Part shown: positions 19,579 to 43,269 of the stretch, one piece after another
Position numbering within the stretch: position 1 is the first letter of the stretch
How the letters are laid out: each line of letters starts with the position of its first letter
Source of the DNA: Blasia pusilla
Taxonomy: Eukaryota
Length of the DNA: 64,000 bases
Reading direction: 5' to 3'
Assembly (NCBI GenBank): GCA_050084515.1
Contig: CM114271.1
Location: forward strand, 47,740,001 to 47,804,000
Notes under the pieces: generated by a model
Databases searched by the model: none
The model's input: only the letters and a program-made list of their open reading frames with translations
Told to the model about the DNA's origin: nothing
Translations under genes and position numbers: made by a program

Positions 19579-21430
19579 CGGGGGCTGGTATTCTGGCAGG
19601 AGAGAGTAAGAGAGGAGAGGAAGAGAGGAAGAGAGAGAGTCTCTCTTCAAGAAAAAGGGCCAAATCCGCCTCCTCTTTCAAAACTTTTTGACATATTTGA
19701 AATTTTTTTTGCTTTCAAATTCATGAAATCTTTAGGAGAGAGTAGGTAGTGGTCCACATTTGGCCCTGAAAAAACCTCCTTTTTCCTGGGGGCGAAAAAA
19801 AAATAGACATCATAAGACCACTACAAACATTTTTCCATCACTCTCCATGTGAGCCTAAGTTTCTTAACATTACCTGTCTCGGTCTACAAAAAGCAGTGCC
19901 CATGGGTATTTTTGTTGGAGGACCACCCAGGTGCCAACCTCTCTTTTTGCAGGGATTTTTGCCTGCATCATGACCTCCCCTGAATTGCCCCATAACCAAC
20001 TTTCTGCTGGTTATGAATGGTGTCTGCTCAAGACCAACTTTGTGAAATGTGAACACATGAGAGGATAATTGAACCAAAAGATTGTTAGCTGTTTGGAGTA
20101 AAGAGGAACTGATGTCCCTTCATTCAGATCCGAAGGCTGAGAAACTGAGAAGTTGCACTCCTCCCAACCCGTAAGAAAGCTTACCATAAGAAAGGATAGA
20201 TTTTTAGAAGTGATTTTCTTCCACCCTTCACCCACGACGATCTAATAGGTTGGGAATCCGAAATGGCAATCCGATAGGTAGTAGGAATCCTGCACATCTT
20301 AGACAAGAAAAGAAGCCTACAAGTGGTTGACGAATGTAGGGGGACGAGCCAAACGTTAAGAAGCCCGCCACAATGCATCAGAAGTTGGTCTCACAGGGAA
20401 AGAGTCCGATCACTCAAGGAGTCAACCTGTCGGAATCCGACAGCTTGCCTGGAAATGGTTAAAAAGTTGCAGTGGGCAAAAAGCAAAAAGTTGCAACCCG
20501 TCGGAATCATACGGGTTGCAAAATTGTAATTTTGAGTAGCTAAAAGAACACAATCCACAAGTCCAACAAAATATTCCAGCAAACTTTTACAAACACCATT
20601 ACGGGTTGAAAAAATCTCGTTCTTTATTACCTCCGAAGGAACCTCGGAAATGTACATTTGACCTAGTCTATGATTTCTTCAGCCTCGTCATCTACAAATT
20701 TACTCCTAACTCTCCTCGGTGAAAGTACAAAAGGAATGTCCTCGGATACAAGTGGCTCCTCTGGCCGATTGTAGACGGGGATCGAAAATGTTGGCGAATT
20801 CGAGAGCCTTGGCCCTCCCCTAGGTATGCCATAACGGTCCCATGTAACCTAATTGGAGTCCCACCGCCTTCCTCGGCAGTATACCTTGTACGCTCTACAA
20901 TGTGACACCCACCCAGTATCAATATGTGCTCCGTCCTTGGTAATACCATGATGGCAATCGCAGAGGTAGTAGGAATCCAACACGTCTAAGAGAAGAAAAG
21001 AAGCCTACGCCTGCCTTTACGAGTTGAGGGGAAGGTGCCAAGGGAAGAAGCCCGCCAGACTGCCTCTTAAGTTGGACCAACAGGGAAAGAGTCCGATCAG
21101 GCAACCTGTCGGAATCCGACAGGTTGCCTGGAAGTGGTAAAAAGGTGCTGTCGTCAAAAAGTGAAAAGTTGCAAGCAGGAGAAATCCGACGGGTTGCAAA
21201 ATAGAAGTCCGCGGAGTACATAGACGATCACATTCGAAAAGACATAAAAAATGTTCAGCAAACTTTTATAAGCATCACCATCGTTCGAAAAAATCTTCTC
21301 CTTTATATCATCCGAAAAAAGCTCGGAATTGTAAATTTGATCTATTCTATGAAATCTTTTGCTTCATCATCAAAAAACTCCCTACTCCAAACGCTGCAGT
21401 CAAGCAAGGTCGTTGAGTTCTTTGAACTCA
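19579..21430 (+). repeat. Left inverted arm (terminal repeat plus subterminal modules)
   Basis: Reverse-complement match to blocks in ~36700-38928. A ~400-bp module is internally duplicated (about 20270-20700 and 20950-21380). Confidence 0.8.
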
Positions 21431-22858
21431 CTCGTCATTGTCCGAGAGCTCTTGCAAAATTACTTTCGGACTTGCCCTCCCGATTTTCGGAATCGTTGGA
21501 AGTGACGATGGAGTCACTACCAATGGTGGGTCTGGAACCGGAGCTCTCCACTTCGGTGGAGAGTTGTACGCCCCAACGAGCCTTCGTCAGACGCGCTTTG
21601 CCTCCTTGCAAAGGTCAAACAGTTCCTGCCTTCCCTCGAGGCAGAGAATGTTCCTGCCACTCTGCCAGGCGCCTTTGATACTTGCCCCTGAAAGTCCCAC
21701 TAAGTTGAACACCAAGTCACCCGGCCTTGAGCAGAGTTCGATGAGCGTTTGCATCAAGGCAAGCAATTTTTCCCTTCCTCCCAGAAGTGGAGTATTGTCT
21801 TGCATGTAAATTCCCGGGGGGGAATTGTACAAACTATCTAAGTTGTACCCATCTGTAAAGAAGTACGTTGGAAACAATGTCAGCAACTAAAGAAGTCGGC
21901 TTGACCCTAGAGAACTTTTTCAATTACTAACTTTGGATCAACCCGTCGGGCTCTCCGTTGTTTTTGTCCATGAGCAACCCGTCGGAAGGCAACGGGTTGC
22001 TGGCCTAGAGCAGCCCATGCTCGGCTGAGAGCAACCCGTTGCTATCAGACGGGTTGCAGCTTTCCGGAAACACAGGGAAAAACCAAAAGCAACTGCAACC
22101 TGTCGGGTTCCGACGGGTTGCAGGTACACCACGGTTTTCCCTGTGTATCTGGGAAAGATGCAACACGTCGGAAACCGATGGGTTGCTCTCAGCCGAGCAT
22201 GGGCTGCTCTAAGCCAACAACCCCTCGCCTTCTGACGGGTTGCTCACGGACAAAAACAAGGGAGATATACTATCTGAAATTAACACTCATTGAGCCTTAT
22301 TCGAATCTGACTCATCACGGATCGGAGTGGGTACTCGTTTTTTATTATCCATGATTGCGCCATCCTCCACTTTAGCGACCTCTTGACGCATTGGAGGTTG
22401 AAGAGCTCGTCCTCGCTCCCTACCAAGAAGCAGCCCCTGTCACTCAGATAGGCGTCTGCAAAGGAGAACAATAGCGCGATTTGGTCATAAGAGAGCGGCA
22501 CATTCCACTCAAGTACCCCGTCCAACGGATTCTCGCCCCACAGTCGCAACCCCGAGGGCAGATCAGCCATCAAGAGATCCACCGCAACCTCTTCGACCAC
22601 TCCATTCACCGTCCAGGTAGCGTGCCCGTTTCGTTGGAGCTTCCGTCCCAGCGTTGTCAATTTATCGATGGCTGGTGTCGACGCTTGAGAACTGAAGCTT
22701 TTCAGCTCATCCAGTAAAGGAGTGAACTGAAGGAGGATGCTTGTCCGGGTCGTTGTTTGTCTGTGTCTTCCCAAGGATGATGGACTGTATTCTCCTTGGG
22801 ACAACCCTGGCACCTCTCGCTTCAGCTTCTCCCGAGTCTGCGGACGGCTTGTCGGGGA
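21428..22858 (-). pseudogene. Inverted partial duplicate of the 3' exons of the methyltransferase-like gene
   Basis: ORFs 22280-23032 and 21587-21886 match + strand 31526-33011 (VAVDLLMADLPSG..EWNVPL; LIELCSRPGDLVFNLVGLSGASIKGAWQSGRNILCLE). Confidence 0.85.
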
Positions 22859-23283
22859 GGTGCGGTAAGAGGAGAGGAAGAGAGGAAGAGAGGAGAGAGG
22901 AGAGAGGAAGAGAGGAGAGAGGAGAGAGGAAACTAGGGTCAACCGAAATAGATACTTTTTTTTAAAGAGAGTTTCTGTTGGGTTGAAGAGAGGAAAATTT
23001 TTGTTTGAAATTTTTTGCACTTTTTTGTTCATATATTAAGGAGTCCCACAAATTTTTTTTTCCTCTTCTATATTTTGGCAACCCCTCTGAGTCCGACGAG
23101 TTGCAAATTGCACAAAATTTAGAAAACTGAAAAATCAGTGGAATCATAAGTGTGGAACCAATCACTTTTTCCATCCAAGGTCTGGAAAAAATCTGTCATT
23201 TGCCCGGGGCTGAATAGAGTTCAAGCTCAAAGTGAAGGTTGAGAAAAAAATAAAAGTACAATCTAAAACCTCATTTTGCATCC

Positions 23284-26200
23284 TCAAAATGGTTTGTTTA
23301 AAATACTTCGAACTTCTTTGAGGGACAGAATTGGTTGGTGGATTCCTACTCCTACCTCCGACTCTCTTAAAACTACCAGCAACACATAGTACATGTGCTT
23401 ACAAGGTAAATACCTTTTGCCACTTGTCTCTATTTGGACAAAGTCATCACATGAACATATGGGAAAGCAATAGATATGCATCACATACACCCTTGTGACA
23501 CTTGAATTTACAATGTTGTTCTTGACCCAATACATCCTTCCTATTCCATTGCCACTCAAGACATCTTTCGTGGCGATGATCTCCATTTTTGCCTCCCGAG
23601 CTGCTACAATTCGCTTTGCTCTCTCCACCGTTGGCCTGCACATTCTGTTTCTCTTCACCCCATTTCTAGACTCAAACAGAAATAATGGATTGAGATCATC
23701 CACCTTCTCCGGGTACATGTTGACATCAATCTTGGGTTGAATATGAAATGCGAAGGTCTCTGTAATGCGAACATGCTCCGAACTTCCCCCGTCTCACGAG
23801 TCTGAAACCGGCACTTGTAAGATTGTCCACCGTCTTGAGTGCGATTCGTACTCGGCGATGGGCCAAATCATGGGGGTATTCGGGAGCTCCAATGGCAGCG
23901 GATAAGACTTCGAAAGCGTAAGATTCATTTGGGCAGAAGAAGTACTTCAATTGATCCCGGTCCTCGTGAAACGATCAAAGGTTTTGAGTCCCCAAAACCC
24001 AGGCAGAGGTCGCCCGATCCTTATGCGATTCTTATTTAGGAAAGTGCCGCATGCTCTCCTAATGCCATCGAGATCTCGCCTGCAGTGGGTCCACGTCTGG
24101 GTTGCTCGAGATATATGCCACCGTTTTAGGTTGCAATCCACCTCCATTACCGAATCCCATATTGTTGAACCATCCCGGTGACGAGGATGTTGCGAACTTC
24201 CAAAGAATCGAGGGCTTTTGAAATAAAACATTCACTGATTTTGGAGAAGTAACTCCATCACGGATTTGGGACGGGTCAGGGTCCCGAATACCAGGCGGTG
24301 TAATTTCCTCATCCAAATCAATCACCGGATTTGTTCTCGATCTTGCCTCTTCACCGCTGAAGTCAAGATACTTATCTGGTTTCCACGAGTCTCGTTCGAT
24401 TTGCTCTACCACCATCTGTATGGGACGTCTTGAAACCCACCCACAAATATCCCCACCTATGTGTACGTCTTGCTCGAGTGGAGTTTCAGCTACGCACCGG
24501 TTGAAGGCTTCGACATACAATTTTTCATCACCAGATCTCACAGCCGCCTTGACATAGAGCTCGTAGATCGACGGCCCTTTTCCTTTTGTTATGCCTTTTG
24601 TGAGAAAGATATGGGATCTTTGCAGATGTAGCATTGCTCTTGCCTGGTCTTGTTGGCATGCCTCCACAAGTGAAATTCGTTGGCATGCTTGTGACGACCT
24701 CCAAGAGGAATGAACACTTTCTGCTCCACTTATGTTGGGGCAGAGGGTATTTTCATGAACGTTCAATCCCTGCAACGACGGCAATGTTAGAAGGGAACAA
24801 AAATAACTTAGGAGTCAAAGAAATAAGCGACCTGTCGGAACCAGACGGGTTGCAGGCTCGAGGCATCCCATGAACGACTCTGCGACCTGTCGGGTCCCGA
24901 CGTGTTGTAACCTTAAACCCACCTACTGCAACCCGTCGGAACCCGACGGGTTGCAAGGCCGAGGCATCCCATGAACGACTCTGTGACCCGTTGGGTCCCG
25001 ACGGGTTGCACACTCGGGTTGCACCAAACATCTGGATGCAACTCGTCGGTTTCCGTCGTGTTGCACACTCGGGCAACCCGTCGCATCCGATAGCTTGCTT
25101 GGTTTCTTGGGTTTGAAATCCATATAATTACCACGCTTCTCATCCTGAGCTACAACTTTACAAACAATTTTCAGCGTGAGCTTGACAAGACAAAATAGTG
25201 AACTCACCTGCCGCATGAAGTTTCCCCATTGTCTCATAAGTACAGTCCACCAACTCAACCAAGAGCACAACTCTTTGTACTTCCCCTCAATCGCATGCTT
25301 CCTCCACCACCCATGAAGTTCTTCCTGGCATTCCATGGCCTGCTTCAAGGTTTTGTTGTCCTTGCAGCGTTGGAGTAGAGTGACATGCTCTGTCCTCTTA
25401 TTCTCCTTGATGCAAGATTTGGTGTACCGGGTCACAAACTGTTGCTAATGGAAAGCATCCGACCTTTCCCTCTCCGGTTGAACCTCTCCATCCCAGAACA
25501 GTTCCCGGATAGCAATCCACCTAGGTTGTGCATTGTCCGCCATGAACCCATAAATTTCTGGAGGTGGCCTTTTGTTTTCCTTCACCACCTCCAATAAGAG
25601 TAACCAGCACATCTTCAAACTGCCAACGTCTTCTGCCTTTACTTCATAGAAAAATATAGTTTTGAGTCCCTTCTCCACATGGTCATAAACGTGAGCACCC
25701 ATCGTCAACCATCCGTTCAGCACTCTGTAGCAAATATCAAAGCTTACCCAGCTCCCGTAAAGATCTTCCCCTTCCCTCATTCGATCTATAAGATTGAGGC
25801 CACTCGACGGACCTATGGTTGACATTTTGAAGACATAGGCCCTGGATCCCTCGCCTCCTTGGCCCATGAACTGCCATCTCTGAATGAATGGAAATCTGGA
25901 GTTGGCCTTGATTCTGGCGATGGCATCCATTTCAGTCGTCTTTCCATCCAGAACTCGTATCTAACGCAACAAATTCCGGAAGCATTCAGGATCAGCGAGA
26001 AATGCGAGATTTTCCCAGAGTTGTTTCTCCTCAACCGCCGTGATCTCGCCCTGTCCAGGGATTCCAAGCAATTGTTCACAAATTTGTGATGCCGTTGTGA
26101 GGTTGATCACTCCGGGCTTTGAACCCGGAGAGTTTCTGTAGACCTCGGCTACTTTCTTCGCCACATCCTCCTTGATGTGTCTTTGAATTGCATCGGTCAC

Positions 26201-27327
26201 AGGATGAGTGTGGGAGCCAACATGAATCGCCACCTTGTATACTACGGCGTGGAGCCCAAGTCGTGGACAATGAAAAATATGTATGCAGGACACGCTCCAA
26301 CGCAGATGGGCGATGCCTGACAATGAGGACATCGATGGCCTCCTGGCGGTATGGTGGCACCGACCTCATATGGAGTTTCTGCATTCTTGGGAGGGAATTG
26401 CGACGTATTGACTCGCCCGTTGCACTCTAGATACGGGCATGCTGGACTTCTACACTCCAAGGCTCCCACGCATTGGCGGCGGGAGACAATCAGGACCATC
26501 TGGAATTGAAGCACTGGTCCGTTGAAGCGCACCATCGATGACAATCGACTTTTCGTCCATACCCTTCGGCATCCTCCATCCTTCTTTTGAGCAGAGCGGC
26601 AAGTGGAGGCAACTCAAAAATGCAATTACCATCGATCGCGTGGCGGCAAATCGACAAGAATGTGCTTGAACATTTTCAAGGGCGAGACGAAAGCAAACTA
26701 TTGCCGATACTCGCAAGAGAGAACGAGTAGGCGGACAGAGGGCCGATTGGTGCGGACAGATCCACCGAGGTTGATAACATCCAAATCTCTTCGGGAAAAA
26801 CAACATTGTTACGAGCCTGCGAAGTTGGAGTCGGCCGGATCTGCAGAGCTTGGAGTTGCAAACGAGAGCTCGGAGCACTAGGAAATTCTAGACCGTCTAC
26901 TTGGGAAACAGACAAATTCGGGCGGGCCATAAACTTTGTATTGACCATTTGGTAGAGGTAGGAGATTCCATACTTTACGATGCGAGGTCTTTGGCTGGAC
27001 CGTCTCACCTATTATGTCTTCCGTGCCGTCCACCTAACATCTTTGGATACAAAGATGGTTCCAATTGAAGAAGAAATCGAAGCAGACATAAAATTTTCAT
27101 CCCTTTGCTATGAAAGACTCACGAGCTTGGGGTCGAATGATTTTACGATTGAGGAAGGGCCATGATGATAGCGCCACAAGTGAGCTTAACATAATTATCC
27201 ATTCCAAGAAGATTCCAACGGGAGGAGACTGAGAATGAGAATATTTAATTTATAATGAATAGGAAACAGATACTCCTGACAGATTTTTACTGACAAGATG
27301 AATTCGGTGGGTGACATTGTCTGACAT
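23284..27327 (-). pseudogene. Mutator-like (MULE) DDE transposase with a Cys/His-rich GCM-like N-terminal domain and a C-terminal SWIM zinc finger; spliced, with frameshifts
   Basis: CVGALECRSPAC..CPHC..C.A..HVGSHTHP; WVSFDICY..YGFMADNA..AIRELF..AFH; WLSWW; NISGAESVHSSW; SWIM CSCDDF..PCKHMYYVL. An intron at 24770-25207 has GTGAGT/TGCAG boundaries. Probable start ATG at ~27327. Confidence 0.78.
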
Positions 27328-27409
27328 AATGGATCCAATTCTGTAACACATTCAATTCTGTTGCAATATGTTACCGGATTTGGGAAGTAGAGGGTTGTGC
27401 ATCACACTT

Positions 27410-28130
27410 GGAACCCGTCGGAGTCCTGGTAACTCAAAAATTACCCGAAGCTAACCGAAGCCTGCAACCCGTCGGCATCGGACGGGTTGCACACTTTTGC
27501 TAAACATTGTCGAAGCGAGCAACCCGTCGCTCTCTGACAAGTTGCTCGGATACCGATCCTTCTTGCCCGAAGATGCCGGAGGCGTGCAAACCGTCTGTTC
27601 TCGACGAGTTCCGCGGGTGCCTCGCCTTTTAGCCCAAAGACGGCGAGGCGTGCAACCCGTCGCCCTCCAACGGGTTGAGCAAGGGCCTCGCCTTGTGGTG
27701 CAGCCAGCCAGACTCCAACGACTTGCACGGGAAGCCCTCGTTCTTAACCCTTGATGAGGGAAGCGTGCAACCCAACGGTCTCCGACGGATTGCCCAAGAT
27801 ACGTCCCGTTCCCGTCCCAAACACGGCGGAGGCGCGCAACATGTCGGTCTCCGACGGGTTGCGCGGGTACCTCGCGTTGTTTTCCGAAGACGACGGAGGC
27901 GCTCAACTCGTCGGTCTCCGACGGGTTGCTCGCGCACGTGGCAACTTACCCAGGATGGCGGAGGCGCCCAACATGTCGGTCTCCGACGGGTTGCGCGGGT
28001 ACCTCGCGTTCTTTTCCGAAGACGACGGAGGCGCTCAACCAGTCGGTCTCCGACGGGTTGCTCGCGCACGTGGCGACGTACCCAGGATGGCGGAGCCGCG
28101 CAACCTGTCGGATTCCGACGGGTTGCCATT
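27410..28130. repeat. Array of ~27-bp palindromes (GCAACCCGTCGGANTCCGACGGGTTGC) at ~55-70 bp spacing, including a 132-bp tandem unit (starts 27825, 27957, 28089)
   Basis: Directly visible. It lies between the divergent starts of the transposase and the cargo gene. Confidence 0.9.
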
Positions 28131-28214
28131 TTTCACGTCCGGACTTCCGTAACATCCGGCACGTCGCCGTCGAAAGGACGACGGGACCCAACGGTCGCCC
28201 AACGGCTAGAAAAG

Positions 28215-28222
28215 TATAAATA
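28215..28222 (+). promoter_or_regulatory. Putative TATA box of the cargo gene
   Basis: TATAAATA just downstream of the palindrome array, followed by a pyrimidine-rich leader and an ATG at 28497. Confidence 0.5.
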
Positions 28223-28496
28223 GGGCAAAAATCGCTCATTTCCGGTTTCTCATTTCGCGATCTTCATTCCTCACTCCTCACTCTCCCGCGCAGCAGCTGA
28301 TCAGATACGAAGGGGCATTTCACACGGCGACACATCGCAAGTCAATAGGAGGGAACGAGAGCAAGACGGTTCGACCGAGCGATAGCGGGACGATTCGAGC
28401 TAACCATCAAGGCGATTCGAGCTCCCATCTCAACATCAGCAAGGCAACTGATCAAGGGATTCGTCGTGGACATAGGTGGAGGCATTTCCGGAAAAA

Positions 28497-31400
28497 ATGA
28501 CGAGGAAAAAACCACAAGCCAACAAGTCTGGGAGCTTCACTCCGAAGTCCATTAGGACTCCTGCGTCAGCTTCTCCTGGGCCTCGTTCGGCGAATGAAAT
28601 TAGGCAGCAGGAAAGCAAGGAGCGGGAAAGGGAAGCGGAGATGCACAACCAAGTGCTTCTTGCGAGACGTGTTCAAGAGGCGCTAGATAAACAGAATGCA
28701 GAGGCCGAGACGTCGCAGCCTTGAAGAAAAGGATCGCCGACGAAAAGAGAGAAAAGAAGCGTCTGGACGCGTTGGTGAGGAGGGCAGAATTGGCTAAAGC
28801 GAGGAGGGAAAAAGCGATAGCCATTGAAGATATCCCAGCCCGTCCAACCGCAAGTGTTGAGATGCGGGAAATGTCCCCCACGAAGTCCGGGGACACAATC
28901 AACATAGTGGAAACGCCAGAAGTTGAAATCGATGACGACGAGGTCATGAGGACCGCCAGCGTGGAGATGGTGGACATGGCCGAAGAAGCCGGAGAGCGGT
29001 CATTCTCGACTCCAAGCCCGGTGGAGGACATCGACCTCTATTGGATCGACGAGTTCCCAGTCGATTTGCCAGCCTCTGTCTCAGACAAGTTAGCTGGTCA
29101 AGAAACCGACCCCATTTTCGAGCGGGTAAGAGAGGTTCTGGGTTTTTTTAATTATGTGAATTGCAATTATTTGGGATTTCAGTGTAGCTTATTCCTCTTG
29201 TCCCGATTTTGATAGGTGGTAAAGCAGATGGCACTCATGGAGGGCCACAACGCCCCGAGGATTCCACTCTGCCGATTGCGGACAATGGAATACGTCCGCA
29301 AAATTCAGTCCGACGAGGACATCGCGAAGCTAAAACAATCGGGCGGCGGATAAAGATCCATCCTCGTCGACAACTTTCCTCCCTTCTATGTTCAGCCTTA
29401 CGACGAGCATGGAACCCAAGCTCTGGTTACCGAGGAGGACTTGGAAAAGCTCGACACATTCTGGAGGATGCGAGACCAGGACTTCAGAAGGCAAGTTGAG
29501 GGCACGGAATTCAGCTGGATGAGGAATCTGCATTTCTTCATCTGGGATGGAAATCACATGTTCATGGCGTGGACCAAGTTTGCGGAGGAGCGGCCCAACT
29601 CATTGGAGGCACATTTCTACGTGAAGGGAGTGGTCCACCCATACCCTCGATCACATGGCAACGGTGGAGATGGCAATGCATGCCATGAACACGTGAGTAT
29701 CTTTAACACTTTTGCAACTCGTCGGACTCGATGAGTTGCTCGATTGATGAATGGGTTAGGTTTGGTTTTGCCGAAAGCAACTCGTCGGACTCCGACGGGT
29801 TGTTGGACTGCACGCTTTTTCGGATGTTTTTTTAAGATTGCAACTCGTCGGACTCCGACGACTTGTTTGATTGAACATAGATTTAACTTGTTTTTGGCCC
29901 AAAGCAAACCGTCGGACTCCGACGGTTTGCTTACCAGGCATTAGCAAATCTGAATGCAATCCGTCGGACTCTGACGGGTTGCATCATTTAGCTCGTTGCT
30001 AGAATCCGACCTTGAGCTGTGACGACCCGTCAGAGTCCGACGGGTTGCAGGAACCCATGTAATTTCTGACGGGTTGAGTTTGGATGTGCAGGATTGTATT
30101 GGAGGGAATGTCACCCACCACCTGGATCGGGGCTGCGATCGGGTGAGGAAGGTGCTTACGACACACCCGGGAGAGTCTGAGGGGTTCTTGGCGATGCCTC
30201 GTCAATCAGATGCTTGCAAAGGGTGCTCAGATTAAGAAGAAAACTTGGCCAAACAAGTTTATTTCTCAAGATGCAGCCGTAACCATCCTTTGCTGGTCGA
30301 AGATACAGGCCGCGAAGAAAAGCGCAACATTGGAGCTAGAGCGGAGGGAGAAGGTATCGTGTCTCGGCGCCAAATTCATCAAGCCGCTATATCTCTACAA
30401 CAACGAAATACACGGCGAGCAAGATGCAGCGATACATCAGCATTCTCAACCCCGAATTTGGTCCGAGTTCTACAAGGAGCCGAAGGCGATTATCAGCGCC
30501 CGTGAAGAGGGATGAAGATCCGCATGGTCGGATTGGGAGAAAGTGTCGCTGGATCGCGTGCATCGGTTTGCGTTGTCCGGGATAAGCGAGTTGGGGAGGA
30601 TATGACTGATGAAAATCAGTCTCGAGGGCTCGAGGCAGAAGAGGGCGCACACCATCCTCGGGTGTGTCCGATCCGATGATCTCGCATTGGCTACGCGAAT
30701 GGTCGTTCGGGGCGCGTTGCGGGTAATCGGAAGTCCGTCTTTGGGCGGTGCAAGCGAGCTCGAAGATTAGAGCCCATTCGCCGAAGCAAACCTTGAAAGT
30801 TACGGAGATTTCGAGGTTTGGCTCGACGACATCGGGACAAGCCAACCAAAAACCAGGATTCAAGACCATGTTCAAGGTTTGCGTCCTCCTCAAAGCAGAG
30901 CTTTGACGAAGAAGTAGAGGGGAACAAGCGGGATCAAGCGAAGAAGAAGCGAGATCTGAGAGTAGACGGCGGTCTGTTTGACTAAAAGCTGCCCAATGGA
31001 TGGTCTTGGTACCTCGTCCGATGTAAAAACGCAGTGCGTGGGGAAAATTACCGGTAGCCTTGAAATTGTGGGCTTCGCCGCCGGATGCAGAGACATTCTC
31101 CATGTACGACGTGGAGATGGGGCAGCACATGTCCGATTGGGAGGTGGAGAATTGCCCCATTTGGCTCGACTTCAACGACCTTGAAGACATCACGGATCAG
31201 GACTTACGAGTGCTTCATGATGCAGTGGCCTCAGGACAAGACGACATCCCCAATTTCGCCCAGCCTGAAGACTTCTTCGGAGGAGATGTAGAAGAGCAGG
31301 CCCACGAGACAGCTGCGTTGGCTTCCAAGGTCCGCACAGCCAAAGACAAATCCACAGCGGGACTCAAAGGCAAGGCGAGGGGAGGGAAAAATTCATAGGC

Positions 31401-33011
31401 CAAGTCTTCCCAAAGAGAGGCTGAAGATTCAAGGCCAGAGGCGGAATCGTCCAGACGAGCGGGGAGAGAGGGTCGGACCAGGTCCTCGGCAAAATAAACG
31501 CCACCAGAATCTGAGGTCATAGAAACCCCGACAAGCCGTCCCCAGGCTAGGGAGAAGCGGAAGCGAGAGGTGCCCGGGGTTGTCTCAAGGAGAATACAGC
31601 CCATCATCCTTGGGAAGACACAGACAAACAACGATCCGGACAAGCGTCCTCCTTCAGTTCACTCCTTTACTAGATGAGCTGAAGAGCTTCAATTCTCAAG
31701 CATCGACACCAGCCATCGAAAAATTGACAACGCTGGGACAGAAGCTCCAACGAAACGGGCACGCTGCGTGGACGGTGAATGGAGTGGTCGAAGAGGTTGC
31801 GGTGGATCTCTTGAGGTACCTGAGTGGAATGTGCCGCTCACTTATGACCAGATTGCACTTTTGTTCTCCTTTGCAGACGCCTATCTGAGTGACAAGGGCT
31901 GCTTCTTGGTGTTGACTGGAGGGAGCGAGGACGAGCTCTTCAACCTCTTGTGCGTCAAGAGGTCGCTAAAGTGGAGGACGGCACAATCGTGGATCATCAA
32001 AAACGAGTACCCACTCCGATCCGCGACGAGTCAGATTCGGGTAAGGCTCAATTCTTGTACTATAATTTCAATTATATTTTAATGATGTGTATAATGAGAG
32101 TCAATCTGGGTTTTTTTTGTCCGTGAGCAACCCGTCGGAAGGCGACGGGTTGTTGGCTTAGAGCAGCCCATGCTCGGCTAAGAGCAACCCGTCGGTTTCC
32201 AATGGGTTGCATCTTTCCCACATACAGGGAAAACATGCTCGCCTGATAGCGACGGGTTGCTCTCAGGCGAGCATGGGCTGCTCTAGGCCAGCAACCCGTC
32301 GCCTTCCGACGGGTTGCATCCAAAAACCAAAATCAACTGGGAAAACCCAAAAGCAACTGCAACCCGTCGGGTTCCGACCGGATGGTCCGAGACAAAACAA
32401 CCCGTCGGACTCCGACAGGTTCATCCAAAGTCAGTTATTGAAAATGTTTTCAAGGCGACTTCTTTAGTTTCTGACATTGTTTCCAACGTGTTGATTTAGA
32501 GATGGACCACTCCTACTTCTCTTTGCCCGTTCGCCCGAGCACAATTTCCAGGTGTTCAAGATCCAGGATCCTGTGGATCCATGCTCGATGGGTGCGGCTT
32601 AGATAGTTTGTACAATTCCCCGGAATTTACATGCAAGACAAGATACCCCCTTGGGAGGGGAGGAAGGAAAAGTCGCCGACCACGATACAAACGCTCATCG
32701 AGCTCTGCTCAAGGCCGGGTGACTTGGTGTTGGACTTAGTGGGACTTTCAAGGGCAAGTATCAAAGGCGCCTGGCAGAGTGGCAGGAACATTCTCTGCCT
32801 CGAGGGAAGGCAAGAACTGTTTGACCTTTGCAAGGAGGCAAAGGCAGAATACGAAAGGCTCGTTGGGGCGTACAACTCTCCACCGAAGCCGAGAGCTCCG
32901 GTTCTAGAGCCACCCTTGGTAGTGACTCCATCGTCACTTCCAACAATTCCCAAAATCGGGAGGGCAAGGCCGAAAGTGATTTTGCAAGAGCTCTCGGACG
33001 ATGACGAGTGA
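28497..33011 (+). pseudogene. Spliced cargo gene: charged N-terminus, ParB/Srx-like domain, C-terminal beta-class N4-cytosine/N6-adenine DNA methyltransferase-like domain; disrupted
   Basis: RIPLCRLRTMEYVR..FFIWDGNH (29546-29557, DGNHR-like). Motif IV-like VDLLMADLPSG is intact only in the inverted copy and deleted at ~31813 here. Also LFSFADAYLSDKGCFLV and EKSPTTIQTLIELCSRPGDLVLDLVGLS..GAWQSGRNILCLE (motif X-I-II-like). Introns at 29126-29215, ~29693-30091 and ~32041-32498. Confidence 0.65.
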
Positions 33012-33799
33012 GTTCAAAGAACTTAACGACCCAGCTTGACTGCAGCGTTTGGAGTAGGGAGTTTTTTGATAATGAGGCAAAAGATTTCATAGAATAGATC
33101 AAATGTACAGTTCCGAGCTTTTTTCGGATGACATAAAGCAGAAGATTTTGTCGATCGATGGTGGTGCTTGTAAATGTTTGCTGATCATTTTTTGTCTTTT
33201 CGAATGTGATTGTCTATGTACTCCACGGACTTCTACTTTGCAACCCGTCGGATTTCTCCTGCTTGCAACTTTCACTTTATGACCATTGCAACCCGTCGGA
33301 TTTCTCCTCCTTGCAACTTTTCGCTTTTTGAATTTAAACCATACAAGGACATACTACATCCCAAGTGAGACTAGGTTTGAGTAACCCTAGTAGGGCAGAT
33401 GCTCACAATTTCAAGTTGTGACAAAAGGAGCATGAAAGAGCTCATATCCTAGGTAGAAAAAGACTTTGATGCCCTTTTCGAGAGTCTAAGGGTGGAGCTA
33501 CTATATCTATCTTGAGAATGGAGGAGAATTTGAGAAGATATGGATGGTCCCATCTTTGTCGGGTACCAAAATCCAGAGATGGATGGGACTCGTCGAATGA
33601 TGAGTGGCTCGCTCACGAGCAAGCCATCAAGCGGGAGCAAGGGGAGAAAATGATGCAAATAGCCTTGCATGGTGTTCAACTTCAGCAAGAAAGTGTAAAC
33701 CGGGATTTCCAAGACTTAGATGTTGGCCTTGATATCCATCAGATGCTAGATTAAATTTTCCAGCAATATGACATACTTCATGAAGTTGAAGATGGGGAT

Positions 33800-36570
33800 G
33801 ACGATGCAGATGGGATAGAGCCTGCCAATGAGGAATGCAAAGAGGGAAGTGGAAACAAGGGACCAGAGTACGATGAGCTAGCGGACAAATGCAAGCCATT
33901 ATTTCCCGTTGCTAAAACTTCAGTACTTGCTTTTGTGATGTTGATGTTTAATATCCAAACCACCCATAGCATCCCAAATGTTGCTCTAAACGAGATCTTG
34001 AAAGCTTTGGGCAAGATTGTTCTTCCCACAATAAACATGGTTCCCCCAAGCTATTATGCTGCCAGTAAACTAATCGGTAAGTTGGGGATGGGTTACAATT
34101 CCATCCACGCATGCCCTAGTGGATGTGTCCTCTTTCAGGGAGACTTAATGGCTGTAGATAATTGCCCAATGTGTGGTAAGTCTAGGTTCAAGCAAATGGG
34201 AAGGTCATTGGTGCCCTCTAAAGTTCCTTTCAACATTTCCTTGTTATCCCTAGGCTGAACCGGATGTTTAGATGTAAGACCTTGTCTGAATTATTAACTT
34301 GGGCACGAGATAACAAGAGCAAGGATGGATTGGTGAGGCAAATTGCTGATAGCAAGGCGTGGAAGCATATGGACAATGGTGTAAGCCCTTTTTTTGACAA
34401 ATCAAGCTCATGGTCAACCTGTCCAGTGCTATTGTTAAACTACAATCTGCCTCCTTGGCTGCAAACCAAGAAAATTTTCATGATGTTCGCTCTAATTATA
34501 CCCAGGAAGAAGAGTGTCAATGCCCAAAACATTGACATATTTTTACTTCCTTTAGTAGAAGAGTTCCAAGAGTTGTGGAAAGAAGTCCAATTTCAAGATG
34601 TTAGGAAGTTATAAGGCTATTGGAATTTCACTTTTAGGGCAAGTCTCATCTGGACCATAAATGATTGTCGTGCATATGGAACCATAGTTGGACAAAGTCA
34701 TGGGGAAAAGCTTGGGTGTGCCATATGTGGACCAAGTGTTGATTCTAATTTTTCAAAATCGTGTGGAAAGCCCATATATGGTTTTCATCAGAGTTACCTT
34801 CCGATGAGTCACCAATGGAGGAGTCGTAGATTTGGTGCATATTTCAATGGGAATGCAGAGCTTAGAGGCCCCGTGCCTAGATTGACGGCCCAAGACATTC
34901 TATTATGGGCTAATGAGAAAAAATAGTATGACGAGAGTGGGGGTCACGAAGACGGGCAAGATGATCCTTACAAGAGGACCCGAGTTTAAAGGAGGAGCAT
35001 TCTATTTGGTCTCCCCTACTAGGAAGTATCCATCCTATGTGTATGAACTAGTAATTTGTTGTGGTACTGATTCTTTCTAAAATTGGTGTGTTTTGTGTGA
35101 GGGTATTTTTACTTCCTTAATACATTTTCAGCATCTTCTTATATGGCATACATAAGATGTCACGCATGTGGAGAAGAATATAGCTGAAAATTTGGTGAAG
35201 ACCTTATGGGGAGTTAAAGATACGATCAAAGTCAGGAAAGACATGGAGGCTCGCGGTATAAGGTCCCATTTGTGGTTGCAACCACATCCCAGTAGAGCGC
35301 AAGGACTATTGAAACCTCTTGCTGATTATTGTCTCACTGCCCATGAGTTAAATATCTTCATATCCAGTACAACAGCTGAAAGTGCCATCTGGTTATTGCA
35401 AGGAATTACGCAAGCATGTTGTAGCTCGCAAGTTAGGAAACATGAAGTCACATGACTACCATGTTTTCATTCACCAAATTCTACCTTATTGCGTCCGTGG
35501 TCTCTTGAAGGACCCTGTGAGGATGACAATCTTGAGATTATCTCAGATTTTGCAAATAGTGTGTTTGAAAGTTTATGATCCAGCCACCTTTGAAAAACTT
35601 CGTGAAGATACAACCTTGACACTATGTCTTTTAGAAATGGATTTCCCACCATCTTTTTTGATGTGATGACATATCTCCGAATTCGTTTTGTCGAGGAGTT
35701 AGACATTTGTGGACAAGTGGCTTGTCATTGGATGTATCCAATAGAGAGATATATGGTATACATGAAGAAGTAGGTGCGATCAAAAGCCCGTCTCGAAGGT
35801 TGTATGGCTGAGGGGTATGTAAGGGATGAGGCAATAGGCTTTGTAACAGAGTGCATGAAATGCTTTGAAGACATCAAGACCCGACTGTGGGATGATGGTG
35901 AGGAAGATGGTGTTGCCGGTGAAGATCTTGAGGGTGTAGGAACTCCTATTCGACTATCCAAGGAGCTTATCAAATTCGCACATCATTTTGTGTTACACAA
36001 CACTGAGTCCATGGTTGTATGGCATAGATGAAGTACTTCTGTTCTTTTTTATTTGATGTGTAGACATGGTGAATGTATTCCATTTTGAAAAATTTTGTAT
36101 TCAAATCACCATTAAAGATGTCTAATGTCCTTGCAACTGTTGTTGGAAAGGAAGTACGAGTCTGAAAATACAAGCTTACCTTTTGAGGATTGGATTCATC
36201 TTGCTGTTATCCAAGATGCCATAACCCATAATAGAGAATTTGATCCTCAAGTCCTATCCTTATCAATTCCTCCTAATGCCAAATCTCTTTCTTATAAGAG
36301 TATGAAAGCTTAGGGAATCCACTATAGGGTAGAAGGAGTAAATGGCTCCAATGAGTTTACAACCTACGATAGTGGTATAGGGGTTGTCTTTCTTGATGAG
36401 AAGTCTCCTCTTCAGAACTCTACATACTCTTATGTTGGGATGTTAGTGGACATATTGTCCCTTGATTATGGTATGGTAGATCAACCGATTGCTTTGATGA
36501 GAGAGAGGTGGGTAAAGGCAGATTGGAACTCACGACATGCTTCCATGAAGATAGCCAAAGAGGGATTCTT
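33800..36570 (+). pseudogene. CACTA/En-Spm (TnpD-like) transposase fragment, decayed
   Basis: IHACPSGCVLF..CPMCGKSRF; STCPVLLLNYNLPPW; IDIFLLPLVEEFQELW; IDVTHVEKNIAENL; MKSHDYHVF; WMYPIERY..RSKARLEGCMAEGY. Confidence 0.9.
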
Positions 36571-36571
36571 A

Positions 36572-38928
36572 CTCTCCTCCGAAGCCGACAGCTCCGATTC
36601 CAGACCCACCATTGGTAGTGACACCATCGTCACTTCCCACGATTCCAAAAATCGGGAGGGCAAGGCCGATAGTAATTCTGGAAGAGCTCTCGACCGATGA
36701 CGAGTGAGTTCAAAGAACTCAAGGAGCCAGCTTGATTGCAGCATTTTGGAGTAGGGATTTATTTGATGACGAGGCAGAAGAATTCATAGAATAGATCAAA
36801 TGTACAGTTCCGAGCTTCCTTCAGATGTAATAAAGGACAAGATTTTTTTGAACGATGATTGTGTTTGTAAAATTTTGTTGAATATATTTTTTGGTCTTGT
36901 CGATTGTGATCGTCCGTGTACTCCGATATTTTGTATTGTAACCGGTCGGATTGCCACGGGTTGCAACTTTTCACTTTTTGACCACTGCACCTTTTTAACC
37001 ACTTCCAAGCAACCTATCGGATTCCGACAGGTTGGCTGCGTGAGTGATCGGACTCTTTCCCTGTAAGTCCAACTTTACAGGCATTTTGGCGGGCTTCTTC
37101 ACTTTGGCACCTTCCCCTAGTTTCGTCAAACAAGTCTTAGGCTTCCTCTCTTATCTAAGACGTGTTGGATTCCTACTACCTGGCTGAGGACATGATGGTG
37201 TCTCCAAGGACGGAGCATATATTGATAGTGGATAGGTGTCACCTTGTAGAGTATACAAGATTTACTGCCGAGGAAGGGGTGGAATCTTGTACAATCAGGT
37301 TACATGGGACCGTTATGGTGTACCTAGGGGGGGGCCAAGGCTCTCGAATTCACCAACATTTTCAATCCCCGTCTACAATCGGCCAGAGGAGCCACTTGTA
37401 TCCCAGGACATTCCTTTTGTATATGAACCTAGGAGAGTTAGGAGTAAATTTGTAGATGACGAGGCTGAAGAAATCATAGACTAGATCAAATGTACATTTC
37501 TGAGCTTCCTTCGGATGTAATAAAGGACAAGATTTTTTCAAACAATAATGGTGTTTGTAAAATTTTGCTGAATATTTTTTTTGGACTTGTCGATTGTGTT
37601 CGTCTAGCTACTCACAATGTTTATTTTCCAACCCGTCTGATTCTGACGGGTTGCAAATTTTCACTTTTCTCATAGGGAGAAAGTCTGATCACTCAAGCAG
37701 CCAACTTGTCGGAATCCGATAGCTTGCCTAGAAATGGTTAAAAAGTTGCAGTGGTAACTTCTGAGGCATTGTGGCGGACTTCTTCACTTTTAGCTCGTTT
37801 CCCTAGTATCGTCAAACCAGTCGTAGGCTTATTTTCTTCTCTAACACGTGCTCGATTCCTACTACTTGTCACATTTCCATTTCGGATTCCCAACTAGTTG
37901 GATCTTTGTGGGTGCAGGGTGGAATGGAATCACTTCTCAAAAATTTTCCTTTGTTATGGTGAGCTTGCTTGCAAGAGGTGCAAGCCATCTGATTTCGACG
38001 GGTTGCAAGAGTTGCAACCTATAAAATTCCGACGGATTGCGAGGGGTGTAGCTTCTCGGTTTCTCAGATTTAGGATTTGAATGAAGGGACATCAGTTCCT
38101 CTTTATTCCAGACAGCTAACAATCTTTTGGTTCAGTTATCATCCCGTGTGTTCACATTTCACAAAGTTGGTCTTGAGCAAACATCATTCATTATGGGGCA
38201 ATTCAGGGAAGGCCATGATGCAAGCAAAAATCCCTACAAAAAGAGAGGTTGGCATCGTACCCGATGCGCATCCGGGTGAGGTCTCATGACACATTAACAC
38301 TTCAGAGACACTTGGGAATGGGGGAAGCTCAACAATTTTCATTTTGGTCATGTGTTGCCAATGGTTTTCCATAATGTATAATGAGTATTGATGCCTTTTG
38401 CAATAAGAGTCAACAATCATTTACAGGCATTCCCTTGTGCCTTTCTTTTGCAAGAAGAGATGTCAATCCATAATGTCAATCAAATATTCCGAGAAGTTAA
38501 ACCTTGAAAAGCACCGCAATCTGTTGAGGCCATTGTTAGAGTCTTTATTTGAACCTTTCATTGAGATGAGATTGCTACTTCTGGTCAAATTATTTGCCAA
38601 TGGTCCTCCAACAAAAATACCCACAGGCACAACTCATGAGATCGAGACAGGCAATGTGAAGAAACTTAGGCTCACATGGAGAGTGATGGAAATTTTTTTG
38701 TAGTGGTCTTATGATGTCTACTTGTTTTTCACCCCCTGGAAAAAGGAGGTTTCTTTAGGCCCGAATGTGGACCACTACCTACTCTCTTCTAAAGATTTCA
38801 TGAATTTGAAAGCAAACAAAAATTTCAAATATGTCAAAAAGTTTTGAAGAGAGGAGGCGGATTTGGCCCTTTTTTTTAAGAGAGACTCTCCTCTCTTCCT
38901 CTCTCTTGCCGAGAATACCAGCCCCCCG
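36572..38928 (-). repeat. Right inverted arm of the composite DNA transposon
   Basis: Reverse-complement homology to 19579-21560. The part from 36572 to ~36990 is also a direct repeat of ~32876-33330. Confidence 0.78.
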
Positions 38929-41900
38929 CTTGCTTGCCCTTGCAACGACCCATATCATCAGTAGTGGATCAAAGGGTAATATTTACTCTCGATCTCTATT
39001 CTGGTTTTTGGTTTTGGTTGCATTTCCAAGCTAATGTTGAAAGGTTTGTTGTGCATACTCATTTTCCATAGTTCTTATTGATCATATGAAGTGCATTGCC
39101 TCTCAAATTGTGGACATTGGAAGGGACTCCGTCAGATGCCACCTTGCAAATACAACCATATCCTCAGTCACCTTGGTCACAAAATCATATGCCATGGTGG
39201 TTTCCAATGATGATGCAAGCACCAATGTCATTTGGTAATCAATTCCAACAACAATGGCCTAGCTACCACCGGGCAAACTTCTCACCATGGCCCCCCTTCT
39301 TGGGTAAGGATTCAGTTATGTGATTCAAAACAATTGTTGTCATGTTTAGATCTGTATCATGAGACCATCCTGAACAAATGAGATTATATTATATTGTGCT
39401 TGACAGGGAGGAGGGCCATTCCCACCACCACCTCCACATCCACCACCTTGTTCCTCCGAGGTTGAAGATGACCAACTATATTGCAGTAGCTCACAATCAT
39501 GCGCAACACCAAGCCCAACAAAAAATGTGTCTTCTCGACAAGGTGCAAGTGTAGGTATGCATCATTGGTTATGTGACTGTGTTTAAGTTTCAGGTTTGAT
39601 AACATTCTAGTTTGATGATAATGTTTAGAACTGAGTATGGGTTCCCTAACACACAAAGATGAATTTGAAATAATTCTTTTAGGAGAAAGGAAGAGTAGGT
39701 CCAAGCGTGACCTATGGAAGCGTGATGTGTCAATCCGCAAAGAGTAGAATCTGAAGCCTAGATGCAAATTACTACCGAGTGGCCATCCAAAAACCAAGGT
39801 TCTAGGCTATGAGCCTTGGTTGAATGAATTGAAGGTACGGGTGATGAGGTACCTCGATCTGTCATGCGTTGAGATTAGTAAGACAAACTCAATGAGCATG
39901 GCAGTCATATCGTGCGTATACACATTGCTATACAATATACATCGCTGGTCACATCCACACCACACAACACCGATTTTCCCCACACATAGGTAGATCCACA
40001 CATGTACAGAAATCAACTCATACATATACATGGAGATCACACAACCGCCCCCCTAGCTAGCAGTTGGATCCCCCTAACTCCAGATAGAAAATATCACATC
40101 TCCTTCACATGACCTACTACCCTATACACATCTCAAACACATTCATTGTCTCGTGGGAACTACATCAAGAGGGGGGGTCAGATATGACATATGCCACCAT
40201 AGAACAACCATCACATACCAATATGGTAGCTGCATCCCCTCGCATATCTGCACAAGATACACCTCAATCCTTGAGGTACCACTGCCAAGCTTGGATCCAC
40301 TATCCCATCCACGATTGGAAGATGACATAGCGCACAATTGCGCACATTATCCTTCCAAACCATACCATCCTGTCCCTCCAACATGAGGACTCCGGTCGAT
40401 AATACCTCGTGCACACGTAGGATCGTGCGCCTCGTAGTGACACCTGCTATAAATACCCATAATCTCCAAGATTAAACCTCCTAATCCCTAGACGATAACC
40501 TCCTCCATGAATTTTCGCGTACCTCAATTTATCTCTATGCTGAGGAATAGCTAAGTTCTCAAAGGCCATAGGCGTAACTCTACAAAAAATCTCCACCCTC
40601 TAAGAACATGCTTGTACCCACACATCTTGATCATCAAGATCTAATACCTCCGCCATATCACATCGAATAGCTGTAGGTAAATCGGGCTCTCTCCCAAAGA
40701 GCAAAAAGTACGGTGAAAATGACACCAAGGATGCATATCAACTAAAGCTATAACCCATAGCCAACCATGACAACTATAGGTCCCACTCCCTCAACTGTCC
40801 TCGCTGCAAGCCATACTTGTGCAATCCTCTCTTCATCGTCTGTACTACTCTCTCCGCCAACCCCTCCGCCTCAGGATGATCTCTGGATGTGGTGCGGTGA
40901 TCTATCAACGCCTGATCAGACAAGGCCTGAAATTCTCCCCTGAACTTGGTACCCTGGTCAGTCAACACCTCCACCGGTGCACCAAAGTGACTAAGCACAT
41001 GAGCTAGAAACGCATAAGCTGTTCCCTCGCTGCCTTGTGTGGTAGTGCCACCAACTCTATCCACTTGGAGAAATGCTCCACCATGACCAACACGTACTTG
41101 TGATGACGCCCCATCAATGGCAAAAGTCCCGCAAAGTCTAAACTCCATCGATACCCTAAGCCCATAATCGGCAAAGGATGTAACTACGGAGCGGGAGCAT
41201 TGAAGGATGTTCGCACTCTGTCACATACCATACATCTGGCCACAAAGTGTTGTACCCTAGTATGCATGCCGCGCCACCAATACTAAAGCTGGAGTAAGTT
41301 GTAAGTATTCCAAAATGCCCAAACTCCTCATGGGCATGTCACACTTCACATGCTCGCTGGGAAGGATGAGGTACCACTCGTATCCTACCATCTCCCCATA
41401 CCCGCAAAATATGAGTCCCCTCCCACCTGAACCTCTCGGCTCTCTGTAGGATCCAACCCCGGTCCCTAGCACTCATTGTGCTCACTATGACGCCAGTGCG
41501 CAAGAACTCCACAACCTCCATGTCATCATGGATATCACGATCACCTGTCGCCTCCTCACTGACCTTCAGATCCAAAGACTCATCATCCAACCCCACCAGT
41601 GGAGTCATCATCTGTGGTTGACCTACCATAGTCAACCAACAAAGATAGGTAGATGCATGCCAACCGGGCTCCATCTCCTCATTACTCTCTCCGTGCCATA
41701 GAGCTCCTGTGTCGTCTCTTTGACTCGGACATGGGTTATGACTCAACCCATCCGCATCCTGGTTCACCCAACCTAGCCTGTGAACCACCTCAAACTCATA
41801 CTCCTGTAGTAATAGAGCCCACCTAGAGCAAGCTTTCCCGTAAGCTTGTCGGACTCCATCAACCACCTCAACGGCTGATGATAAGTGTGAAAGGGTTGCC

Positions 41901-43269
41901 AAATAAATAGCACCTCAAATGTGCCACGAGCCCACACTGCAGCCAAGCACTCTCCCTTGTAGAAGTTGTACTTTGCCTATGCAATGTTAATTGATTGGCT
42001 TGCGTAAGCCACAACAAAATCCCTCTCCTCGTCATCCCTCTGAGTCAGCACTGCTCCTAGAGCCAACATGCTCCAATCCGTATGTAACGGGAATGGGTGA
42101 CCCCTAACCAATCTCTGTAAAATGGGTGAGGACGTCAACCCGTCCTTGAGCTCCTAAAATGCTTGCTCTTGATCATCTCCCCACAACCAAACCTGATGAA
42201 GTCTCGTCAACAAGATCAAAGACTTTGCGATCGCACTAAAACCCTTGACATACCGTCAATAGAAGTTCACGAGTCCCAGAAACGCTCGGACTTGACTCAC
42301 ATCTGTAGGGCATGGAATCTGCGCAATAGCCTCCACCTTTGTTTGGTGAACACCTAACCCACTCGGGTATATGGTGTGTCCCAAGTACTCAATCTGCTCC
42401 TAAAAGAATCTGCACTTTCCTGGATGTAACTTCAGTCCATGTAACTACAATCGCCGAAATATCTCCTCCAAGTGTTGCTCATGCTCCTCAATTGAGGGTT
42501 GTGTACAATGTTATAATGTTACGATGATAAGAATATTATCTATGTAACATCGTAAAAAATCCAAGCTAGCCAAAATCCTATCCATCACTCTTTGAAACTC
42601 CGCATGCGCGTTCCTCAACCCAAATGGTAAGAACCGCCACTGATACAAGCAATCTCTCCCAAACCAATCTATCCCCCAAAATGTTGTCTTCTCCCTGTCC
42701 TCCAACCTGATAAGAAGCAGATGATAGCCAACACGAAGATCTAAAGTACCGAAGATCTTTGCATGCCCTACCGCATCAAAGATCTCCTCAAGAGTAGGCA
42801 TGGCGTACCAATCTAACCTCGTCTGTCGGTTGATAGGACAATAATCTCCACACATCCGCCTATCCATCCAATTGCCATACATATCCTTCTTCGTCGGCAT
42901 GATTGTGGCGGATGCATACTCCCCATGTGACAACTCCACAAGTCTTGCCTCCAACAAGTCGTGACTCCTGCTTTGAATCAAGGCTCGCTCCATATGAGAA
43001 TACTTGTAGGGTCAACGAAAGATTGGAGTATCACTAGCCAACTCAATCCGTATTTCGGGACCCTTCAGCATACCCAAGTCTCTCATACTAAAGGCAAAAC
43101 AACTGACATGCCCTCTCAAAAACCTATGGACTCGCCGTGACTCTCCTCCTGTCAACTTAAGACCTATCACAAGCTCCCAAGTCTCACTCGGAGAGGACGT
43201 AACCTCTGACTTTGGTTGGTATGTAGCAACCCTAGCCACCTCCGCAACAACCACTCCACTCTGACGTCC

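Follow-up and report, generated by a model that had tools for sequence, protein, structure and literature searches.

We analysed a 64,000-nt stretch of the Blasia pusilla genome (GenBank assembly GCA_050084515.1, contig CM114271.1, positions 47,740,001 to 47,804,000 of the forward strand). This stretch is referred to as the window, and all positions are given in its coordinates. A transposon-like structure of 19.3 kb (19580-38926) lies in the window, and two genes in divergent orientation lie between its termini: the remnants of a transposase gene (23284-26613, - strand) and an accessory gene (28497-33011, + strand; copy B) beginning 1.2-1.9 kb from it. A second, inverted copy of the accessory gene (copy A, 22857-21587, - strand) holds its 3' half only. 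From sequence comparison we conclude that the last two exons of the accessory gene encode a domain derived from beta-class DNA amino-methyltransferases; this ancestry is well supported, and the domain is most likely inactive.

The accessory gene and its methylase-like domain

Exon 1 of copy B (28497-29125) encodes a charged N-terminal region rich in Lys, Arg and Glu, which matched no Pfam family; it has a frame change near 28700 and ends at a GTAAGA donor (29126). Exon 2 (29216-29692), for which a ParB-like domain has been proposed, encodes RIPLCRL and, at 29542-29556, WDGNH; an in-frame TAA interrupts it at 29351, and its donor is GTGAGT (29693). The middle exons (30147-31398) contain several in-frame stops at 30500-30800, and one part of them (31048-31341, with NCPIWLDF) is kept in a homologue from Riccia sorocarpa (tblastn E 2.6e-5). 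The exon equivalent to methylase motif IV (31526-32040, donor GTAAGG at 32041) has suffered a 52-nt deletion near 31815, which takes out the ADLPSGLRLWGENPLDG codons (ADLPSG...DG) and hence the DLPS stretch. The last exon (32607-33011, including the stop codon) is equivalent to the C-terminal half of the N6_N4_Mtase family, which binds S-adenosylmethionine (SAM), and reads LVGLSRAS. In copy A, the motif-IV-equivalent exon (22301-22768, - strand) retains VDLLMADLPSG intact, and its donor at 22300 is mutated from GTAAGG to ATAAGG. The last exon of copy A (21587-21833, - strand) is equivalent to motifs X/I-III and reads LVGLSGAS; an insertion of 4 nt close to its beginning and a premature stop disrupt it. 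Both copies in the window are pseudogenes, and therefore no product is made from this locus itself.

The reading frame is kept from exon 1 to exon 2 (AG acceptor before 29216) and from the motif-IV exon to the last exon (acceptor before 32607). No splice joint was found for the introns in the reads of three RNA runs aligned to the window. An earlier reading of this DNA, made from the sequence only (hereafter the sequence-only reading), had described a spliced gene; the frame-keeping splice signals at two junctions agree with that description, and RNA joints do not add to it for any intron. All of the protein strings quoted in that reading were found in the sequence: FADAYLSDKG at 31870-31899 (+), the EK..TIQTLIELCSRPGDLVLDLVGLS.ASIKGAWQSGRNILCLE block at 32667-32804 (+, copy B), and VDLLMADLPSG...EWN at ~22582-22500 (-, inverted copy A). 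LSGAS as quoted there comes from copy A (21587-21886); copy B on the + strand has LSRAS.

In every library searched, the last exon matched DNA methyltransferase families, consistently over the C-terminal SAM-binding region. The PHROGs DNA methyltransferase families phrog_6952 and phrog_3008 matched with E 1.3e-5 and 4.8e-5, respectively, for copy A and with E 3.7e-4 and 6.3e-4 for copy B. Pfam N6_N4_Mtase (PF01555) was matched over its positions 165-220 of 221 (E 0.022 for copy B, 0.041 for copy A), and the NCBIfam DNA methyltransferase PRK13699 was matched with E 0.01. The best PDB match was the beta-class enzyme M.RsrI (residues 226-272, E 0.04). A tblastn search against 50,697 phage records matched 136 of them (best E 1e-3); among the 25 matches listed, 18 carried a methylase or methyltransferase annotation, 5 were unannotated and 2 were called hypothetical. 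In a protein atlas, 29 of 30 feature matches fell in PF01555 clusters (top score 0.95). Judged on these sequence comparisons, the resemblance of the last exon to methylases is well beyond chance. The SAM loop departs from the canonical D-P-F-x-G-S-G-T-T: copy A has D/N-L-V-G-L-S-G-A-S and copy B has LSRAS, with Leu aligned to the position of the first Gly.

An exhaustive phmmer search of 1.84 billion representative proteins with the motif-IV exon returned six proteins at E up to 0.001. Judged by eye, four of these were repeat proteins and two were true homologues, the latter being hypothetical proteins of the liverworts Riccia fluitans (305 aa) and Riccia sorocarpa (488 aa). No algal protein was among the results. 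The copy A motif-IV exon matched the two homologues with tblastn E 1e-16 and 2e-14; both also matched two further exons of the window in conserved order, and identity between the window and the Riccia members was 31-34%. In the three-member alignment, D-L-P-[S/K/T], LW, N, V..WN, D.GC and W.I.N..P.R were invariant, and the stretch downstream of DLP[S/K/T] read ..LW..N....V..WN in all three. At this motif, window copy A has DLPS, R. fluitans has DLPK and R. sorocarpa has DLPT; copy B has lost it by deletion. The catalytic (D/N/S)PP(Y/F/W) was absent from all three, DLP[S/K/T] having neither the second proline nor the aromatic residue.

In alignments, this motif took the position of motif IV. 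When the three-member family was aligned with four phage methylases by hhalign, VDLLMADLPSG fell on SVDxIITDPPY (E 0.052) and ...RGCFLV was placed on ...GACVYFF. In a profile of eight phage methylases, DLP was aligned to DpPY in all three members, upstream of the motif-I exon. The R. fluitans protein scored 5.8 bits (E 5e-4) and the R. sorocarpa protein 2.8 bits (E 4e-3), scores that none of 300 shuffles reached; the window scored -0.7 bits (E 0.05), which 15 of 300 shuffles reached. By these scores the placement is weakly backed for the window and more strongly for the Riccia proteins. The eight phage methylases were picked by likeness to the last exon, and only scores of the N-terminal half are unbiased. 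Searches of other kinds gave no further relatives: the motif-IV exon had no match in word-indexed searches of longer proteins, the family profile gave only a chance match in the PDB (E 1.3), and a metagenome scan with the family alignment gave 241 pattern matches, none of which was confirmed.

These comparisons point to a beta-class methylase-derived domain in the last two exons, with motif IV before motif I. The sequence-only reading had claimed the same motif order, which the alignment of DLP with DPPY and the family matches of the last exon bear out. It had also called the motifs degenerate and the enzyme possibly altered or dead, and the retention of DLP in two Riccia homologues favours this. 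On the three-member alignment, the non-canonical DLP[S/K/T] is conserved rather than a product of decay. The missing second proline and aromatic residue, together with Leu in place of the first Gly of the SAM loop, make a loss or change of activity likely, and the domain probably does not function as an amino-methyltransferase.

The proposed ParB-like exon and the palindrome arrays

The N-terminal part of ParB proteins generally shows RIPL..L, an I..L..S helix and P..V, followed by DGNH, with a DG.HR-type motif after a beta-alpha-beta unit. The exon at 29216-29692 broadly resembles this pattern (RIPLCRL...IAKLKQS...ILVDNFPPFYV, then WDGNHM) and has no Arg after the His. The sequence-only reading had assigned a ParB-like domain to it, and our searches gave this no statistical support. 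The exon matched no family in Pfam (E up to 10), NCBIfam or PHROGs; tblastn against the phage records gave a single record at E 7; word-indexed searches among longer proteins gave nothing; and a single-sequence AlphaFold2 model had a mean predicted local distance difference test (pLDDT) score of 38.1, which is unusable. ParB_N was found in none of five phage records searched for it. Among 30 atlas look-alikes of the exon, the top one was an Ascomycota cluster (0.96), 5 were in clusters partly carrying DUF3723, one was DUF6551 (0.89), and 3 were in clusters with ParB_N in 11% of members. These language-model look-alikes are the only hint of ParB and give no more than a lead. The label "ParB-like" is plausible and unproven, and we put the odds on it at about even.

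In each of the three RNA runs, 28-48 reads covered just a 44-nt piece of this exon (29266-29309), with consistent loose ends on both sides and with first-mate orientation opposite to that elsewhere in the gene. Some well-expressed transcript from another part of the genome seems to include a diverged piece of the exon.

The structure contains many copies of a 25-bp palindrome, CAACCCGTCGG-N3-CCGACGGGTTG, in which an 11-nt half-site is followed by 3 nt and the inverted half-site. The half-site CAACCCGTCGG, with one mismatch allowed, occurred 62 times in the window against 0.56 expected, and 61 of the 62 were within 20423-38039. The full palindrome (up to 4 mismatches in 22) occurred 37 times, in every case inside 20423-38039, and did not occur in any of five shuffles. 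Arrays of roughly five to ten units each, with spacings of mostly 38-71 nt, lie in the intergenic region, within non-coding stretches of the two genes and in the left and right arms. The densest array (27411-28126, ~10 copies, with a 67/132-nt tandem unit) lies between the divergent transposase and accessory genes. Clusters of 5 copies each lie in the intron after exon 2 (29778-30047, spaced by 52-66 nt), in the last intron of copy B (32128-32422; the copy A counterpart is at 21975-22242) and in a non-coding gap of the transposase gene (24828-25063).

RNA reads with joints between opposite strands were observed at the palindrome clusters at 28098-28125 and 29766-29945, with up to 33 reads in one run at 29766/29841. 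Transcripts that fold into hairpins would fit such joints, as would template switching at these palindromes.

Transposon setting, expression and other repeats

The structure at 19580-38926 has identical inverted 15-nt termini, GGGGGCTGGTATTCT, and exact matches to this sequence occurred in the window only at 19580 (+) and 38926 (-). The left arm (19580-22857, - strand), which holds copy A, is a 3.2-kb inverted copy of the right arm (31526-38926), with 81-91% identity. The matching segments were 31526-32234 with 22857-22134 (81%), 32587-33283 with 21853-21153 (90%), 36571-37970 with 21564-20173 (82%), and 38601-38904 with 19925-19622 (91%). An insertion of ~3.3 kb (33284-36570), outside the gene, interrupts the right arm and is flanked by a direct duplication of ~420 nt (32875-33290 and 36571-36989, 82% identical). 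An open reading frame (ORF) in it (33755-34258) has paired CxxC motifs and no Pfam match; the insertion may be a fragment of another DNA transposon. AG-rich, microsatellite-like tracts of AGAGGAG units were observed at the inner boundary of the left arm (22868-22931) and just inside the left terminus (19601-19639).

The transposase gene remnants encode a Cys/His cluster, a DDE-like core and a C-terminal SWIM-like CxC..CxH. One ORF (25445-25960) was 50% identical to two proteins of 678 and 660 aa, and tblastn with residues 182-659 of one of these spanned 26586-25154. The SWIM match had E 0.021 and 14.8 bits (cut-off 19.6). By eye only, the Cys/His cluster and the D..D..E spacing resemble the pattern of Mutator-like elements (MULEs). 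Neither the ORFs nor the 678- and 660-aa relatives gave a Pfam MULE match, and the flanks of the two termini showed no target-site duplication. Ty3-type genes of a long terminal repeat (LTR) retrotransposon (13252-19417, - strand: gag at 18464-19417, reverse transcriptase at 14554-15273, integrase at 13252-13890) stop ~160 nt from the left terminus, and this abutting element may account for the missing duplication. The transposon setting of the accessory gene is supported by its divergent arrangement with the transposase gene between the same termini. That the carrier is a Mutator-like element, as the sequence-only reading had proposed, stands insofar as the gene lies in a transposon-like structure beside a DDE/SWIM transposase gene; with no MULE match, a SWIM score under the cut-off and no target-site duplication seen, the name "Mutator-like" is plausible on motif grounds only and is an informed guess.

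The three RNA runs, from the labelled species, gave 204-308 reads each on the window. Of these, 1-2 per run were at least 99% alike to it; most were 90-95% alike and therefore derived from other copies of the family. Read orientation over the transposase gene was opposite to that over the accessory gene, as divergent sense transcripts predict. In one DNA run, the transposase region had a summed contig depth ~ten times that of the accessory gene: it was ~26,000-117,000 in most transposase bins, with a dip to ~4,300 at 24735-25081, and ~4,300-19,000 over the gene region. This could mean that the gene is missing from many copies of the family, or that the two parts come from different families.

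The window is eukaryotic DNA with many transposons, and Ty3-type gag, reverse transcriptase and integrase ORFs flank the structure. A repeat of ~1.3 kb occurs four times in the window, in both orientations and with 88-100% identity (9087-10367, 44100-45173, 51331-52610 and 57412-58700). The pair at 44.1 and 51.3 kb lies 7.2 kb apart around a Ty3-type RNase H/integrase ORF (49522-50301), and its members are therefore probably LTRs of another retrotransposon family. The segments 40250-43104 and 61085-63940 form long inverted repeats (73-75% identity, ~18-23 kb apart) and may be old copies of a further repeat family.

Interpretation and comparison with known systems

The reading that we prefer, at a probability of about 60%, is a decayed large DNA transposon of a plant, with its nearest relatives in liverworts, that carries an accessory gene in divergent orientation to its DDE/SWIM transposase gene. 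In the accessory protein, the C-terminal domain derives from bacterial or phage beta-class (N6_N4_Mtase) DNA amino-methyltransferases. With DLP[S/K/T] for (D/N/S)PP(Y/F/W) and with the VGLSG loop, base methylation would most likely have been lost, and the domain may serve instead as a DNA- or SAM-binding module. The N-terminal WDGNH region is possibly a ParB/sulfiredoxin-like DNA-binding domain. As the likeliest mechanism, the accessory protein (through this N-terminal domain) or the transposase would recognise the 25-bp palindromes, and the element would thereby be marked or shielded as "self", as has been proposed for the ParB-like accessory proteins of algal transposons.

Several results weigh against this reading. 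The N6_N4_Mtase scores (15.2 and 14.3 bits) are under the Pfam gathering score of 26.7. Motif I was seen in this window alone, because the Riccia gene models end before that exon. The motif-IV exon by itself had no match in Pfam, NCBIfam or the PDB, and its score for the window against the phage profile is borderline; the last-exon scores of 35-39 bits against the same profile are biased, because the eight phage methylases had been picked by last-exon similarity. A single-sequence AlphaFold2 model of a copy A read-through (stops as X) had a mean pLDDT of 34.5 and is unusable for the fold. The loss of activity is deduced from motifs only. The negative searches with the WDGNH exon, the missing MULE domain and target-site duplication, and the difference in DNA depth belong on the same side. 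A structure prediction of the two methylase-half exons with SAM scored 0.02 against a mark of 0.34, which is evidence neither way.

In plant DNA transposons, it is usual for proteins of the element to bind arrays of subterminal repeats. The palindrome arrays might be transposase-binding subterminal repeats, or nested insertions resembling miniature inverted-repeat transposable elements, unrelated to the accessory protein. Clusters do lie in the arms, and the ParB-like assignment is unproven; however, the densest array is between the two genes and not at the ends, and in red algae inverted-repeat arrays sit specifically beside a ParB-like gene (bioRxiv 10.1101/2025.02.11.637652). We regard this origin of the arrays as possible and less likely than not.

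The gene and the transposase may also come from different elements, nested or adjacent, the gene being a passenger fragment or a separate repeat. The ~ten-fold depth difference, the missing target-site duplication and a left arm holding only the 3' half of the gene would fit this. It is unlikely, given that the same palindrome recurs in non-coding gaps of each gene, in the stretch that separates the genes and in the two arms (37 of 37, and none elsewhere in the 64 kb), that the sole two matches to the 15-nt terminus enclose both genes, and that a divergent gene pair is the arrangement published for Ectocarpus (PMC12477816).

That intact copies encode an active, non-canonical N6A/N4C methyltransferase, which would write N6-methyladenine (6mA) or N4-methylcytosine (4mC) on the element under guidance of the N-terminal domain, is quite improbable. 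The overall motif order and the PGD..LD..G.SG...A...GR...E core are retained, conservation between the window organism and Riccia (31-34% identity) implies selection for some function, and algal counterparts are predicted to make 4mC or 6mA (PMC12477816). The second proline and the aromatic residue are nevertheless missing in all three members, the first Gly of the SAM loop is replaced, and neither local copy is intact. That the methylase resemblance arose by chance from short motifs is very improbable: single Pfam, PDB and NCBIfam E-values are only 0.01-0.04, with Pfam and NCBIfam below curated cut-offs, but the PHROGs match reaches E 1.3e-5, all four libraries lead to the same family and the same profile region, the Riccia motif-IV alignment is independent, and 29 of 30 atlas matches are in PF01555 clusters.

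A bolder form of the preferred reading can be put forward tentatively, with the odds well against it: a family of land-plant transposons would possess a partition-like self-recognition module, in which a ParB-like domain binds the 37 parS-like palindromes and brings along a methylase-derived pseudoenzyme kept since before the split from Riccia, so that the element is marked, bridged or shielded from host silencing. If this were true, eukaryotic transposons of lineages ranging from algae to bryophytes would have recruited bacterial ParB/parS logic repeatedly and independently.

Among known systems, bacterial and phage N6_N4_Mtase proteins (PF01555; M.RsrI; phage methylases near terminase or ParB loci) share with the accessory protein the motif order IV...X/I, the PGD.VLD..G.SG....A...GR...E core and the EK(P)..L...LI helix. 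The accessory protein differs from them in DLPS for DPPY, VGLSG for F.GSG, scores under the Pfam cut-off, introns and a long N-terminal extension. DN4MT1, which comes from a liverwort, and bdelloid N4CMT are likewise eukaryotic genes of prokaryotic N4/N6 methylase ancestry. The Marchantia proteins MpDN4MT1a/b have a canonical TSPPY and are encoded by host genes, and DN4MT1 is expressed in sperm; the present gene, in contrast, is transposon-borne with DLP[S/K/T], and the exhaustive phmmer search gave two Riccia proteins as its only homologues. The sequence-only reading had raised a possible relation to the way 4mC or 6mA writers entered plant genomes. A tie to the 4mC writers DN4MT1 and N4CMT is tempting but found no support here, and the idea that the gene bears on how liverwort DN4MT1 arose is dropped.

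The DIRS1 methylase domains were judged inactive on the basis of substituted catalytic and substrate-binding residues, and the same source describes ParB-HTH (helix-turn-helix)-fused Dam-type enzymes in chlorophytes (Iyer et al., PMC4738411). DIRS1 offers a transposon-borne methyltransferase-fold domain judged inactive, comparable to the probably inactive one here; it differs in belonging to the PCIF1-like (group 2) methylase clade and to a retrotransposon polyprotein. In the red alga Bostrychia, PAG2 is described as an N6A methylase with SET and PAG3 as a ParB-like domain with a 2-oxoglutarate (2OG) oxygenase, among accessory genes of Plavaka, Zisupton and Mutator elements; tandem inverted-repeat arrays adjoin PAG3, and homologues are found in Chondrus Mutator elements (bioRxiv 10.1101/2025.02.11.637652). 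The likeness lies in giant DNA transposons with ParB-like and methylase-like accessory functions and repeat arrays, the PAG copies being mostly degenerate and weakly expressed. In Bostrychia, however, the two domains are in separate proteins with other partners; here they would be in one protein, and no SET or oxygenase domain was detected.

Accessory genes through which a DNA transposon could bind and modify its own DNA are rare, and their recognition, in brown, red and green algae, is only recent; the sequence-only reading did not know of this precedent. Our literature search found no land-plant report of such a gene; the search was limited and is not proof that none exists. The present case adds a plant relative with no detectable homologues outside liverworts; a conserved substitution of the catalytic motif, suggesting that the methylase fold serves a purpose other than methylation; and a candidate DNA target in the 25-bp palindrome arrays. 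A close counterpart is the brown algal Sola1-1_Ec32 of Ectocarpus, whose accessory protein of 1104 aa has ParB-like DNA-binding and N4C/N6A DNA methyltransferase domains; the Sola1 family is 21.5 kb long, with the accessory gene on the strand opposite to the transposase and the methylase predicted to make 4mC or 6mA (PMC12477816). Compared by description, both are DNA transposons of ~20 kb with an accessory gene divergent from the transposase and a beta-class-like methylase after a proposed ParB-like domain. They differ in transposase (Sola1 there, DDE/SWIM here), in host (a brown alga and a plant) and in the DLP[S/K/T] of the present family. Accessory genes with ParB-like and N4C/N6A-methylase domains have already been published for brown, red and green algal transposons, and the gene described here is a further, pseudogenised case.

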